Source: a virus (taxonomy: Duplodnaviria > Caudoviricetes). From it: DNA of 33,044 nt. Within the stretch, counting starts at the first letter, position 1. Each line of letters opens with the position of its first letter. Positions 18,864 to 29,355 of the stretch are shown piece by piece. The stretch is from positions 1 to 33,044 of the IMG/VR virus record IMGVR_UViG_3300036713_000142. One strand, 5' to 3'. Position numbers and translations under genes: made by a program. The notes below the pieces were generated by a model, which was not told where the DNA came from, ran no database searches, and worked only from the letters and a program-made list of their open reading frames with translations.

Positions 18864-21800
18864 TGTACTGTTTCACCATGTAAGAAAGTAAAGCGCCTGC
18901 CATCGGGCAGACCAATAGTTAGTTTTTCACCGTGTTCGGTTCTAACTGAAGAAATACGACGTGCTCCATTGCGAAGAACAACAGGTGTACCAGCAGGCAT
19001 AGCGTAATCCCATCCAAGATGCTTACCGTCTCTACGTGATGCACCAAACTCTCCACCACTAACTGTTACGCCTGCAGACAAAGGTGTGATACCTTCAGCT
19101 GTTTGGAATCCAATGTATTCATCAAGAGATTTACGACCAAAGAAAGTTCCTTTAACATCCTTTACATCTAGGTGAGAACCTGTAGAAGTAGGTCCAATGT
19201 TACCAACACGATAAACAATTTCTGGACGCATACGTTCTACATCAAATCGTTCATTTTGAAGGTTTGTTCGTACCTGCTGCATTGCATCGGCAATAAATGA
19301 AGGATCTACTTTTTGGAGACCTACCCATTCTTGACCTAAACCTTGAATAGGTATCTGTCCACCTTGTGCAAAAAACTTACCAGCTCTCCGATGCATCAAT
19401 GCAATACCAGCCTTATCTTGCGTTTCACGATTGTAAACATCGTCGGTAGAAATCACACCTTCATCAATTAAAGATTGAAGAGTAGTGCCAATAATTTGAT
19501 ACCTTCCTGTTGCATGAAGTAAACCCTTTCTTTGGAGTTCTCTAATTTCACCGACTGTTGTTTGATCGGAAGAGCGGCCAAACTCTTTACTAAATGTAGA
19601 TGAGCCATAAGCTACAGTACCTCCATTAGATCCACTCCTATTTAGAGCATCATAACCATCATTTGCTGGGTCAGTAGATCTAGACTCTTTACTAGCAATA
19701 AGATTAAGCATAGGTTCATATGCAACAACACCAGTAGCACCAGTTGCAATCTGTGTTGCACGTGTAGTTCTACTAAGGGATGGACGGTAAGTCAAAAGAT
19801 TACGCACTGATTGAGGAACAAATCCGTAAACTTCACCTGCAGGAGGCATGTTTTCAAATGTCTCACCAGCTAGTTCAAGTTGCCGTTCAATAATTTCATA
19901 AGGATTAAGTGTAGGGTACATCCTTTGAACTTGTAGCACAACAGAAGGTAGTGCTCCTCCAGTGCCTACTGCTTTTGCTTGTTGAACTTCATCGGGAGTA
20001 AGGATTAGATTTTTAGAGATGTAAGCATTATCTTCAACAACTTTTTGGCGAATGTTTTCTACACGCGCCCGTTGAGCAAGTTGCCCACTATCTTTACCTA
20101 AAATCTGGAACTTACCATTGATACCTGCTTCACGTTTAAAAGTACCTGTACCTTTTTCAATTTCATCAGAAACTTGCTTACCAGCTTCAATGTAAGCGGC
20201 AGAAGAGGTTGCACCGTCTTTAATCATTTGACGTGCTCTTTTATCAATTTCCGACTCAATGTAAGGTTCAAGTTGAGCCTCTTCCTTACCTTCTTTTAGT
20301 TGAGTAGTTGTGTTAAGCACTCCACGCAAAGAAGCTTTAGCACCACGAATAGCTGAATCTCGCTCTGTTTTAGCAATAGCAGAAGGATCTACAGCATCTT
20401 TTCGGTATGCCTCAATAGTTTCTTGAGAAAACTTACCATTCATGAGGTAATCCATGGTAAGAGTACCTGTATTCCTCATGTAATCCAACAGCTCAGTAGC
20501 TTCCTGAGTTGCAAGTTGCTCCTGATAGCGTAGTACTTGCGGCGGAGGTTCGTTAAATTCATTAATGTACATCTCTTCAAACTGATCATACATATCACGA
20601 ATTTCTTTTTCACTCTTACCAGCACGAGCTTCATAAAGAAGTGGTAGAGACTTTTGAATAAACTCTTCTTTTCTAATAGTTTGCTCAGATTGAAAATCGT
20701 TATACTGCTCTATATTATAATCTTGAATGGCATCTTGTATCTGTTTATAATCCCTTTGGTAAAGATCTTTAAACAGCTTTTCTTTTGTTGATCCTTTAAG
20801 GATGACTCCAGCTTGACCAAGGCTCTCTAAATCATTGATGGTAAACTCACCAACTTTAGCCATGTCAGTATAGATGCTAATAAGTTTAGCACGCTGACGA
20901 CGAAGACCAACTGGTGTACCACCTGAGGTACGCATAATCCATGCTTGAGAAGCATCGCCAAGACTTCTACCTAGGTTACGAGCTGAATCAATCTCAGTAC
21001 GCAGGTCTCGTGTTTCTTCCTCATCACGGATCAAAGCAAGCTGTTTATTCCTCTCATTAGCAAATACAGCATTCTCTCTTTCTTCAATCTTCCTCATACC
21101 AGGCATGAGGTATTCATTCAAGAAAGTCGAATCCATTCCTTTGAATTGCTCAAAGAATTCACCGCGAAGAATTGTATCAATAGCAGCCTTTACAGGCATA
21201 CCACCATTAATGGCGGTCTCCATTGTATAGGTCTGACCATTAATATCAAATTCACGGTCAGCATTTTCAGCACGGAATTCTTCAAAGGATTGAACACCTT
21301 GGGTAGCAAAAGCTTTCATAGCACCATACAGGCGCTGACCACTCAGGTTTCTAAGCTGTTCAACTTGTTCTTCAGATACACCACGATTCCGCAGCTGTTC
21401 AATAATAGCATTGTATGCGGTATCCTTAGATTCAATATCAGCTTCACCTGCTTTCAGTGCGGTGTACTCTTGCCATTTAGCACCAAGAGTATATACCAAC
21501 TGATAGCCTTCAATTTGCTTTTCAGTATCACGCTTTTCTTTCAGGTCAACCACCAGTTTGGAGATGCCTTCAGACAAACCCGCAAGACTTTCTAGGTTAC
21601 GCTCATACTTAGCTTGTCCAGAATCAACCCTGGCTTTCTCATTACGAAGCTTAGCCTGCTGATAAGTTTCACGATAAGTATCTTCGAGCCTTTTATTTAC
21701 TTGTCTTTGAGATTCTTCAATCTCTTGCTTACGGAGCATACCTTGTAGGTAAGCATCACGATTCCTTCGTTCCTGATCACGAAGATTTTCCATACCTCGC

Positions 21801-26597: not shown

Positions 26598-27650
26598 TCA
26601 ACCAGCCAGCAGCTCAATAGCAGCAGCAGGGTTCACCCAATCAGCACCCATAGCCATGCGACCAACGATGATGTCACCCTGATACATGGTCTTCACGTCA
26701 GAGCCAGTGGTCTGAATCTGAGGACCGATAGCTTCCACAACACCAGCTGCTTCCTTAGCATAGATAAGACCGCAGGAGTTGGAGAAGTCACCACCATAAT
26801 CATTGTTCTCACCAGGCACACGAGCAACGGTACCAGGAACCATGAAGGGCAAGTTGTTGGAGCGCCAGATCTTGATGCCAGCAATCTCATAGAGACCTTC
26901 ACCAGACTGAACACTACCAGCACTGTTACCGTAGTCACGGTTCAGAATGTTGGTATCAACCTGAGAGATCAGAGCGTAGTACTGACGAGGAGACATCACA
27001 GCATTACGACCTTGCTTGGGCACGTTCTTCTCATCGAGAATAGCAGCTGCTTCAAAGAAGGCATCCACCAGTGCTTGGGCATTGTACTCGTTACCAGCAC
27101 CAAGTTGGATCTGGCTACCACCAGGCTCAGGACCAGGAGCGGCAGAGATAGGATGAGCTTGACGTGCAGCCTTAGCGATCACACGGAAGATCTTTTTGTC
27201 GTAAGCTTCAGCCAGAGCATGACCGATCTTAGCAGAGATTTCCGAACGCAGACTGTAGTGAGCCAGGGTCTCATCAAGGTCATAGACGAAGGCGCTGGAG
27301 ATCAGCAGGTCGTCCATGACGATGGTCTTCTCAGCCACGGGAGGGTTGGAAGTACCCAGAATTGGAGTGCCAGGCTGGTGATAAGCAGCATCCATCCGAC
27401 CAGTGTAGATGAACTGAGCCGAACGACCGTTGCGAAGAGCACGGTTCATCACGGTGCCTTTAGCAATCGTAGCACTCTCATATGCCTTAATCATCTCGCC
27501 GGTAAACAGCTTGAGATAAGTAGCATACTTACTGTTGTAATCATTAATGTTATCAGTAAGACCAAGACCAGGAGTCTTGTTAATATTACCTGTTGCCGTC
27601 AGAGTAGTATTCGGCGGCACACCAGGATTTGCAGACCAAACAGAAGCCAT
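26598..27650 (-). CDS. major capsid protein (T7 gp10-like)
   Basis: LKLFTGE, GRSAQFIYTGR, DDLLIS and GHALAEAYD motifs. Confidence 0.96.
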   Translation of the reverse strand: MASVWSANPGVPPNTTLTATGNINKTPGLGLTDNINDYNSKYATYLKLFTGEMIKAYESATIAKGTVMNRALRNGRSAQFIYTGRMDAAYHQPGTPILGTSNPPVAEKTIVMDDLLISSAFVYDLDETLAHYSLRSEISAKIGHALAEAYDKKIFRVIAKAARQAHPISAAPGPEPGGSQIQLGAGNEYNAQALVDAFFEAAAILDEKNVPKQGRNAVMSPRQYYALISQVDTNILNRDYGNSAGSVQSGEGLYEIAGIKIWRSNNLPFMVPGTVARVPGENNDYGGDFSNSCGLIYAKEAAGVVEAIGPQIQTTGSDVKTMYQGDIIVGRMAMGADWVNPAAAIELLAG

Positions 27651-27787
27651 TGTAGTTAAAGAAAAGAGAAGTTATGTGAGTTTCTCTTTAAGCGCTTAAA
27701 GATATTAAGTTTTTATTTCTTCGGTAAATTCTTACGCTCACCGAACGCGTTCGGTATGAGGTGCCCGCCGTAGCAGATTCATACCAA

Positions 27788-27837
27788 TGGGTAAGGGAGG
27801 AATTGCACCTCCCAATGCCGCTTTTACGGACTACCCA
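27788..27837 (-). ncRNA. tRNA-like minihelix element
   Basis: GGGUAG...UUACCC acceptor-like stem stacked on GGAGG-UGCAAUU-CCUCC (5 bp plus a 7-nt loop), with one short intervening hairpin. Confidence 0.5.
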
Positions 27838-27845
27838 ATGTCCTT

Positions 27846-27908
27846 TTAGCGGACAATTGTTTTGTTGTACTTAACACCACGATAGGTGTAGGTAACTTGA
27901 ATAGACAT
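27846..27908 (-). CDS. DUF4278-like YRG peptide (20 aa, MSIQVTYTYRGVKYNKTIVR)
   Basis: Read manually. The YRGVKY motif lies directly downstream of the riboswitch-like fold. Confidence 0.8.
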   Translation of the reverse strand: MSIQVTYTYRGVKYNKTIVR

Positions 27909-27910
27909 AG

Positions 27911-27980
27911 TTCGTACCGATAAGCTCATGCGCGTTCCAGCCTTGAGCAACCCGTCCCACACGTGGGATGAACGTACGAA
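27911..27980 (-). ncRNA. glutamine-II (Downstream-peptide) riboswitch
   Basis: P1 CGUUC/GAACG, P2 UCCCAC/GUGGGA, pseudoknot GCUCA/UGAGC, and the CGUUCAUCC..GGACG..GGAACG signature, upstream of a YRG peptide. Confidence 0.8.
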
Positions 27981-27983
27981 ATA

Positions 27984-29039
27984 TTAACCAATTACCGGAG
28001 CACTATGTGTCGCCAAATCAAGTGGGAAGTTGTGAGCATTACGCTCATGCATAACTTCGAAACCAAGATTGGCACGATTAAGAATGTCAGCCCAAGTATT
28101 AACTACTTGACCTTGACTATCAATAATAGATTGATTGAAGTTAAGACCATTCAGGTTGAATGCCATGGTGCTTACTCCAAGCGCAGCAAACCAAATACCA
28201 ACCACAGGCCAAGCAGCGAGGAAGAAGTGAAGACTACGGCTGTTATTAAAGGAAGCGTACTGGAAGATGAGCCTACCAAAATAGCCGTGAGCAGCGACAA
28301 TATTATATGTCTCTTCTTCTTGTCCAAACTTGTAACCGTAGTTCTGGCTTTCTTGCTCGGTGGTTTCACGGACAAGAGACGAAGTGACAAGAGAACCGTG
28401 CATAGCACTGAAGAGTGACCCGCCAAATACTCCCGCAACACCAAGCATATGGAAGGGGTGCATGAGGATGTTATGTTCAGCTTGGAACACCAACATGTAG
28501 TTGAAGGTTCCCGAGATACCCAAAGGCATAGCGTCAGAGAACGACCCTTGCCCAAACGGGTAGACCAGGAAAACTGCGGAAGCCGCCGCAACGGGAGCTG
28601 AGTAAGCGACACAAATCCAAGGCCTCATTCCTAGTCGATAGCTAAGTTCCCACTCTCGTCCCATGTAAGCAAAGATGCCAATGAGAAAGTGGAAGACGAC
28701 GAGTTGGTAGGTCCCGCCATTGTAGAGCCATTCATCAAGTGAACCAGCTTCCCAAATTGGGTAGAAGTGTAGTCCGATGGCATTGCTGCTCGGAACGATG
28801 GCTCCCGATATAATATTGTTCCCGTACATAAGGGAGCCAGAGACGGGTTCACGTATTCCATCAATATCTGTTGGTGGTGCGGCAATGAAGCCGATAATAA
28901 AAGCTGTTGTAGCGACAAGCAAACACGGAATCATGATTGCGCCGAAATGTCCGACGTACAATCTATTGTTTGTGCTGGTTACCCAGCTCAGGTAATTATC
29001 CCAAATGTTTGAGCGCTGTTTTGTTAATACTGCGGTCAT
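27984..29039 (-). CDS. psbA: photosystem II reaction centre protein D1 (351 aa)
   Basis: [36 protein letters not shown] and [17 protein letters not shown] at 29039; no intron. Confidence 0.99.
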
Positions 29040-29355
29040 TGTAGAAATCAAAAACATCAAGTGCCTTATGGGCACGTCGATCTCCAAAATACGGCAGCAT
29101 CATATCAAGCAAACGGGTAACGTCTTTTTCATTTCCCACTTGCCATTTCCATGCGTCTTTAGTTTGGTGAGGACGACGCGGGCAATAAGTAATTTTATTA
29201 TTTATGCAGTTAGCCAATCGTGCAAATTTCATAAGAACATCACGATCTGTACTAACTAACTGAAGGTAGCAATAACCTTTTTTCTTACTAATGGAGATGG
29301 AACCTTCGCCCTCAAAGAGTCCAGACATCCATGCGGTATCCGCGAGTTGAGTCAT
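28996..29355 (-). CDS. single-motif LAGLIDADG-like endonuclease (119 aa)
   Basis: [15 protein letters not shown] motif followed by L.L.STD..VL, ..W.W.V and L...LPYF. Confidence 0.78.

Follow-up and report, generated by a model that had tools for sequence, protein, structure and literature searches.

The window—the whole stretch of 33,044 nucleotides analyzed here, taken from the IMG/VR record IMGVR_UViG_3300036713_000142—belongs to a T7-like cyanopodovirus whose capsid region is read on the minus strand. The leader of its capsid gene holds a T-arm minihelix, a real and widespread RNA element that has no Rfam 15 family. This minihelix is probably a tRNA-mimic punctuation mark for host RNase Z, perhaps joined by RNase P, at which the transcript would be split and behind which the hairpin H2 would protect the capsid mRNA. 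The minihelix folds, covaries, stands in a fixed register to H2, is exchanged with full tRNAs and with an unrelated hairpin (class C), and recurs at boundaries between early genes; the cutting, the identity of the enzymes, and the protection of the mRNA we infer. The reading as a tRNA mimic, made in a preliminary description of the window, is strongly supported by the stem covariation, by the tRNA residues of the T-loop, and by real tRNAs in the same slot and the same register.

By capsid, the closest cultured relatives of the window are S-CBP4 and S-CBP3 (77–79% identity). The minihelix lies between psbA and the capsid gene (Table 1) and ends 138 nt before the capsid start codon. The glutamine-riboswitch-like RNA downstream of psbA scores 21.8 bits against an Rfam cut-off of 35 and 18.7 bits against one of 33. 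The leader peptide with the YRG motif is presumably DUF4278-like; the Pfam score gives no backing to this, since the window peptide has no Pfam match, DUF4278 (PF14105, threshold 25.3 bits) included, and the corresponding peptide of S-TIP37 reaches 14.1 bits against PF14105, below the same threshold. Against phrog_5049 the window peptide gives an E-value of 0.009. The 23-nt insertion upstream of the minihelix repeats part of it and is absent from close relatives. The region 27700–27787, which covers H2, folds with a z-score of −3.24, and a RAGATH-30 match in the leader, found at a relaxed Rfam E-value, was not accepted (20.9 bits against 59.5). Sixty of 65 capsid leaders contain loop-less palindromes of at least 8 nt, where 23.4 would be expected, and these palindromes comprise 56 different sequences; the one overlapping the 3' arm of H2 could switch or dimerize the RNA. 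Elsewhere in the window, a LAGLIDADG-like free-standing ORF (28996–29355) overlaps the 5' end of the psbA frame.

Table 1. Features of the capsid leader and its surroundings in the window.
Feature	Position	Strand	Remark
psbA (D1)	27984..29087	(-)	
Glutamine-riboswitch-like RNA	27925..27977	(-)	below Rfam cut-offs
Leader peptide ORF, YRG motif	27846..27908	(-)	20 codons; 27 codons if from ATG at 27929
Extra hairpin within 23-nt insertion	27839..27855	(-)	
T-arm minihelix (class A), 49 nt	27788..27836	(-)	fold, conservation, covariation, covariance model
Acceptor-like stem, 5' strand, positions 1–6	27831..27836	(-)	pairing probability 0.97 in the window
Junction hairpin in place of D and anticodon arms	27818..27829	(-)	
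T-arm: 6-bp stem 48:66 to 53:61, T-loop 27801–27807	27795..27813	(-)	
Acceptor 3' strand and discriminator	27788..27794	(-)	
Hairpin H2, tetraloop and asymmetric internal loop	27751..27787	(-)	starts at tRNA position 74
Loop-less palindrome, overlaps 3' arm of H2	27740..27755	(-)	
Second loop-less palindrome, capsid leader	27685..27702	(-)	
T7-type major capsid protein gene	26598..27650	(-)	Gp10A-like, E 4e-76

The 49-nt minihelix folds at −21.1 kcal/mol, a value that one shuffle in 200 equals (z −3.11); folded together with its flanks, it has a z-score of −2.33. The base before the T-stem (position 48) pairs with position 66, giving a 6-bp T-stem stacked on a 6-bp acceptor stem. The preliminary description had assigned a 5-bp T-stem and a 7-nt acceptor strand paired at six of seven positions; the 12-bp stack stands, with a geometry of 6 + 6 bp. 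It had also placed the element at 27788 to 27837, which gives the sequence correctly on the minus strand but includes the base before position 1. The 7-nt T-like loop and the discriminator A at 27788 are present as described, and the window fold likewise has one small hairpin, within a 16-nt junction, instead of the D and anticodon arms. Among relatives this junction is variable—7 to 33 nt long and carrying either a hairpin or a D-loop-like stretch. The acceptor stem of the window features G1–C72, and its pair 3:70 is G–C. The T-loop matches tRNA at G53, U54, C56, R57, A58, and C61, with G instead of U at position 55. Scored against a covariance model that includes it, the minihelix reaches 56.3 bits.

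A tRNA gene was rejected because there is no cloverleaf: the junction of 16 nt holds a single hairpin, RF00005 is empty, and ARAGORN finds neither a tRNA nor a tmRNA in the window. A tmRNA was rejected on the same ARAGORN result and for the lack of CCA and of G3–U70, the pair being G–C in the window and of four types among relatives. Rfam gives no match in the window at the gathering score and none overlapping the minihelix at E ≤ 10, and none of the capsid copies scanned scores against the tRNA-mimic families of Rfam 15 (mascRNA, YrlA, C4, RF02926, RF03030, and others). A single T-arm is contained in 67 of 200 resampled windows; the case for the minihelix therefore rests on the relatives.

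The preliminary description had called for a covariation check across relatives, and both stems covary. In the T-stem, 99.4% of the cells are paired and double changes occur at four of six pairs. Full Watson–Crick pairing of the acceptor core (2:71 to 5:68) is seen in 61 of 79 distinct relatives; swapping the 3' strands between elements (1000 rounds) gives 10.6 on average and 22 at most. The core occurs in 28 different versions. The counts of stems, stop codons, and folds are based on 79 relatives since four of the 83 class A elements have short flanks and were left out. RNAalifold on a MAFFT sequence alignment recovers the T-stem only and no acceptor stem because MAFFT shifts the 5' acceptor strand by at least one column in some rows; for this reason, the acceptor stem was tested by the strand-swap null and by naming its pairs on the unfitted alignment. 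The latter yields 65.7% paired and double changes at four of four pairs, with lower values for slid controls. As a further control, bacterial matches with the same T-arm carry the acceptor core in 23 of 118 cases. The additional pair 48:66 is kept in 78 of 79 minihelices versus one of eight full tRNAs of the same slot. G52–C62 is invariant in 91 of 91 T-arm modules and, in contrast to most T-loop positions, was not demanded by the search pattern. G55, which is not tRNA-like, is found in 53 of the 91; a tmRNA with G55 was also met in the bacterial control scan (L513). A D-loop-like UGG in the junction accompanies U55 in 14 of 23 junction types and G55 in 0 of 40 (Fisher p 2e-8, kinship ignored). 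The outer acceptor pairs are less constant: of 48 stem types, 28 retain 1:72 and 28 retain 6:67, and −1:73 is paired in 18 of 79 relatives. The acceptor stem is predicted at a probability above 0.5 in eight of 79 relatives with flanks and in 43 of 79 alone, and forcing it costs a median of 1.7 kcal/mol; such predicted weakness in most relatives would count against cutting.

These changes in sequence at constant pairing also bear on a signal at the level of transcription, i.e., a pause, a terminator, or a promoter of the phage RNA polymerase before the capsid gene, which we regard as very unlikely. T7-like phages such as LUZ100 do carry a strong promoter ahead of the capsid gene, and the 5' part of the window minihelix may resemble the published Syn5 promoter. 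However, this likeness is gone in close relatives, and the LUZ100 promoter is located upstream of the tRNA at this place, not within it. An intrinsic terminator was likewise rejected: the minihelix is followed by A-UU-GG and H2 without a U run, and the minus-strand terminator scan does not report it.

In T7-like cyanophages, the slot ahead of the capsid leader is filled in 205 of 216 regions by one of three modules: the minihelix, a complete tRNA, or an unrelated hairpin of 12 bp. These regions comprise the window, 78 of 80 capsid-anchored viral loci, 17 cultured cyanophages, and 120 loci anchored on a downstream leader motif, which is blind to the minihelix; the sets overlap, and L010 and L011 (no upstream DNA) and CRP-227 are left out. 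A T-arm module is present in 110 regions and the class C hairpin in 95, with both together in none. Ten of the 11 other regions are truncated, and the remaining one, P60, has a variant outside the pattern. The T-arm modules amount to 91 distinct ones, 83 being minihelices and eight full tRNA-shaped RNAs. Among cultured phages, the minihelix occupies the capsid slot in P-SSP7, S-TIP37, Syn5, S-CBP3, S-SBP1, P-GSP1, P-SSP2, and S-CBP2. A BLASTN search against cultured phages returns mostly psbA matches and misses the minihelix. On a capsid tree of 79 rows, obtained by a quick search after removal of near-identical loci, the module label changes at least 17 times, at least 10 of them forced by well-supported branches. 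This exchange of modules implies a shared job.

Six of the eight slot tRNAs are called by ARAGORN, and that of NATL1A-7 is an annotated tRNA-Gly. Shrunken anticodon or D arms are seen in the slot tRNAs of L023 (2608–2677), L221, L270, and L287, with the anticodon arm shrunken or broken in L023 and L221; these four are possible intermediates between tRNA and minihelix. A slot with full and partly degraded tRNAs might also be the site of a decaying tRNA gene or of a functionless integration-site remnant, and tRNA-derived attachment sites have been described for T7-like cyanophages (PMC1079782). We consider such a remnant extremely unlikely: both stems carry compensatory changes, the 48:66 pair is new with respect to tRNAs, several divergent copies occur per genome, and the attachment site of P-SSP7 lies, in the available text of PMC1079782, next to the integrase gene and not at the places of the minihelices.

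The class C hairpin features a conserved 17-nt core and a helix of 9 + 1 + 2 pairs; in 56 of 66 loci its final base is left unpaired. Across these 66 distinct viral loci and L201, L203, L204, L210, L212, L215, and L217 in the capsid slot, the 12-bp helix covaries, the internal loop is almost invariant, and the apical loop has 6–8 nt; the loop is reminiscent of the hexaloop of the iron-responsive element. Class C has no Rfam family. It occurs once per genome, precedes the capsid gene in 74 of 77 viral matches with enough flank, and is confined to the capsid site in five cultured genomes. A conserved two-hairpin element without Rfam match often stands upstream of class C or of a slot tRNA (before class C in L024, L029, L042, L060, L062, L063, and L069). 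Since class C lacks a canonical T-loop, it would either be read by another enzyme, or the slot would need a stable helix only.

The latter idea leads to a compact module that tRNA-processing enzymes leave uncut and that acts by stabilizing the RNA or binding a protein, as a 3' barrier for the upstream message, or as a guide for RNase E at the A/U linker. The place taken by class C without a T-loop fits this reading, as does the linker, which is nearly always A followed by UU, and cyanobacterial RNase E is able to cut just 3' of a stem–loop (PMC10989914). RNA contigs bridging the site, described below, also agree with it. An uncut module is nevertheless unlikely: it leaves unexplained the T-loop residues and the tRNA-length ruler, the invariance of G52–C62 outside the search pattern, and the full tRNAs in the same register, and it offers RNase E a linker with just 1–3 single-stranded nucleotides before H2.

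The register between module and H2 is fixed. Of the 91 distinct T-arm modules, 70 have the H2 start at position 74 and 20 at position 75; behind all eight full slot tRNAs, it is at 74. Class C is spaced from the same H2 start by 10 nt in 59 of 66 loci and by 11 nt in the others. Within the T-arm modules, the T-loop is separated from position 72 by a constant 12 positions, and positions 74–75 read UU in 84, AU in six, and UC in one, with CC in 0 of 91. It follows from this register that a cut after base 73 would leave a capsid mRNA that begins directly with H2, regardless of the module in the slot. The H2 core itself is kept ahead of the capsid genes of pelagiphages, roseophages, P-SCSP1d, and RHEph01 (L460–L468, L218), all without a minihelix; the core is likely a protein-binding site. 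In pelagiphages, roseophages, and P-SCSP1d, no T-arm was found at the capsid gene, and matches to the pattern elsewhere are imperfect.

The window shows no second minihelix and no class C hairpin, and its early region has no second copy by pattern or model. The preliminary description had missed that relatives carry several copies per genome. The 120 loci matching the T-arm pattern divide into 62 of capsid-leader type, 16 tRNAs or tmRNAs, and 42 others. Contig G002, which encodes a T7-type RNA polymerase, features five minihelices in five successive gaps between small genes; G003 has five and G001 two. The T-loop pattern has 26 occurrences in ten cultured cyanopodoviruses; 25 are on the coding strand, and the backwards control gives 14 on both strands together. 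Thirteen of the occurrences are early-region copies with perfect stems in eight of the ten phages (S-SBP1 three; P-SSP7, S-TIP37, and P-SSP10 two each; Syn5, S-CBP3, S-RIP2, and NATL1A-7 one each), six lie in the capsid slot, and six are imperfect or without context. No early copy was found by pattern or model in S-CBP4, S-CBP1, and P60. When only capsid copies are used to build a covariance model, it detects the early copies at 16–33 bits and, across the whole P-SSP7 genome, gives three matches—the capsid copy and the two early copies. Position 74 of these three P-SSP7 copies lies at about 650, 1047, and 20681. Rfam assigns no family to five early loci at E ≤ 1.

The 13 cultured-phage copies together with those of G001 and G002 form a set of 20 early elements from 10 genomes. 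Their acceptor score of 5.25 exceeds that of all 1000 strand swaps (3.95 for swapped strands), base 74 is U in 20 of 20, and CC at 74–75 is found in none. A hairpin begins at positions 74–76 in 17 of the 20, compared with 3.8 in shuffles (maximum 9) and 2–8 at other offsets. The early minihelices always stand directly ahead of a hairpin and a start codon. No T7-type polymerase match was found in the records of L604, L611 (G003), L603 (G004), and L601 (G005), where minihelices precede small genes; the device is hence not confined to T7-like phages. The early region of the window has two further kinds of repeated or folded DNA: a 48-nt repeat (741–788 and 1698–1745, 96%) at two early gene boundaries has no stable fold, with one copy preceding a DUF7222 gene (in G001, the homologue of this gene comes after a minihelix), and a stable intergenic hairpin pair (455–545, z −2.98) stands ahead of an early gene and could be another kind of processing site.

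A scan of bacterial genomes shows no cyanobacterial version of the cassette, and four of its matches look like cyanopodovirus pieces within MAGs. The scans also met a viral element resembling the tRNA-like domain of tmRNA, closed by a short hairpin and without a message domain (L192), and a conserved T-arm element with G55 that ends near CCA in genomes of the Brucella/Ochrobactrum group and of rhizobia (L478, L479, L536, L557, L591); one of the latter lies near a tRNA-Thr, and those scanned have no Rfam match.

The position of the copies also bears on the idea of a stable RNA of about 50 nt that would work in trans, decoying host proteins that bind or cut tRNAs, with the mRNA end as a by-product. 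Cuts by RNase P and RNase Z together would free such an RNA, and the broken anticodon arms of the slot tRNAs L023 and L221 are what a decoy might have. However, the minihelix has no anticodon arm at all and a junction free to vary, and its constant place before a hairpin and a start codon follows a cis logic. A decoy small RNA, which the preliminary description had offered as an option, is less likely than processing because the element is swapped for two unrelated modules at one slot, in close kin for an unrelated hairpin, and recurs at gene boundaries; we consider it very improbable.

For the favored reading as a processing mark, the proposed course is as follows. Host RNase Z, perhaps joined by RNase P, would cut the long phage transcript at the minihelix, RNase P between 27837 and 27836 and RNase Z between 27788 and 27787. 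The capsid mRNA so released would start with H2, and this 5' hairpin may shield it from 5'-end-dependent decay by RNase E and RNase J. One polycistronic RNA would thereby yield separately stabilized messages, as with the RNase III sites of T7. All four enzymes—RNase P, Z, E, and J—are encoded by cyanobacteria (PMC10989914), and host RNase E is induced by P-SSP7 (PMC9692554). RNase Z cuts after the discriminator and binds the T-arm along with the acceptor stem, not the D or anticodon arm; a C following the discriminator (position 74) suppresses it (PMC7479834). The minihelix features a T-arm and acceptor stem with an unpaired discriminator and no CC following. RNase P applies a 12-bp ruler to hairpins of acceptor and T-stem (PMC11143913), which the stacked stems of the window match, and Y RNAs without a 7-bp acceptor stem are left uncut by this enzyme (PMC4201824). 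Of the two activities named in the preliminary description, the 3' cut by RNase Z is thus favored because of the fixed register to H2 and the absence of CC after the discriminator, and RNase P is less favored because no more than 28 of the 48 stem types retain the pair 1:72.

Assembled RNA-library contigs from eight runs show no stop at either predicted cut site, and contigs span the minihelix in three of them (X2, X8, X11). The ends expected by the preliminary description near 27836 and 27788 are therefore not seen among these contigs; the bridging weighs only weakly against cutting because some uncut molecules or DNA suffice for it. Contig breaks at 27859–27865 (X1, X3, X4) were rejected as cuts since they coincide with a 23-nt strain difference, 23 nt at 27836 being left out in four RNA-library runs. 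A slot tRNA with mapped ends nearby is found in the Pseudomonas phage LUZ100, whose capsid transcription unit includes a tRNA-Asn that begins at 20831; an RNA 3' end was mapped at 20828 (PMC10134795). This end may be a terminator because a hairpin and three U precede it. A tRNA-Asn ahead of the capsid gene is retained in both LUZ100 and RHEph01, two distant T7-like phages.

The account of the element in the preliminary description also missed its overlap with translation: of 79 relatives, 71 have the upstream stop codon within the minihelix, 34 of them on the 5' strand of the acceptor stem and 37 in the junction. A YRG peptide ends at that stop in 59 of 79 relatives, the choice of the upstream ORF being a heuristic that favors YRG peptides. 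Among 20 loci of relatives scanned, five carry a Glutamine-II riboswitch above the Rfam cut-off. As a tentative extension, phage-wide tRNA-mimic punctuation by RNase Z and P could be combined with gating of the capsid cut by nitrogen status. Glutamine would bind the riboswitch, ribosomes would then translate the short YRG peptide, and a ribosome stopping inside the marginal acceptor stem would unfold the mimic and so set the amount of processed, stabilized capsid mRNA. The stop inside the element in most relatives and the weak acceptor stem speak for this gating, and overlaps are expected anyway in compact genomes, which speaks against it. We rate it low because the stop codon of the window is displaced by the 23-nt insertion to 9 nt upstream of the minihelix and because the upstream stop lies outside the module where this is class C or a tRNA.

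Several known systems resemble punctuation by the minihelix. The mascRNA and menRNA of MALAT1 and NEAT1 are shrunken tRNA mimics with reduced D and anticodon arms, at which RNase P and RNase Z cut a long RNA; they differ in being eukaryotic, in having a 7-bp acceptor stem, and in setting the 3' end of the upstream RNA, and they have no Rfam match to the window. In coliphage T7, RNase III sites between early genes split the polycistronic RNA and are, like the minihelices, repeated processing marks between the early genes of a T7-type genome; these sites are long hairpins, whereas the minihelices carry a T-loop and a tRNA ruler and also precede the capsid gene. The closest parallel in layout is given by the t-elements of plant mitochondria (Forner et al. 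2007, PMC1920247), which are likewise tRNA-like cis elements with a conserved T-arm at mRNA ends; the minihelix, too, places a conserved T-arm in a tRNA-like fold beside an mRNA boundary. According to PMC1920247, canonical tRNAs and simple acceptor-like stem–loops do the same job among t-elements, and the downstream mRNA receives its 5' end from RNase Z, with the ends mapped. By comparison, the minihelix belongs to a bacterial virus with host enzymes, is 45–60 nt long versus about 74 (PMC1920247), and features a 6-bp T-stem, a common G55, a dedicated 5' hairpin after it, an overlap with a stop codon, and predicted ends only. Mimicry of acceptor stem and T-arm is common to the tmRNA domain, C4 antisense RNA, M3 RNA, and the 4.5S precursor (PMC11143913) and is likewise a property of the Y RNA YrlA (PMC4201824). 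These RNAs stand alone and are matured for their own function, whereas the minihelix is embedded in mRNA at gene boundaries; it has neither a tag frame nor an Rfam match.

In the literature, no description of the minihelix was found, and the alignments of Weinberg 2017 and Fremin 2023 and the transcript papers on P-SSP7 could hold part of it; the available texts of PMC1079782, PMC4646655, PMC7885011, PMC11475235, and PMC5737381 do not mention it. Fremin et al. 2023 (PMC10690425) report five candidate structured RNAs no more than 25 nt from PHA00201 capsid genes, some of them marine. These candidates, compared by position only, more probably correspond to the leader's 3' portion, given that 138 nt separate the end of the minihelix from the start codon.

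The podoviruses concerned are abundant in the ocean and include the model phages P-SSP7, Syn5, and S-TIP37. If the proposal is true, these phages borrow the tRNA maturation of their host to cut mRNAs and to cap them with 5' hairpins. This would explain how very unequal amounts of protein arise from single long transcripts and how mRNAs survive under the RNase E induced by P-SSP7. A role other than decoding would then also account for the single tRNA gene that some T7-like phages keep before the capsid gene (NATL1A-7, LUZ100, and RHEph01). The ends are predicted with single-nucleotide precision in cultured, genetically tractable phages, and the 50-nt module could serve as a portable processing tag for cyanobacterial expression.
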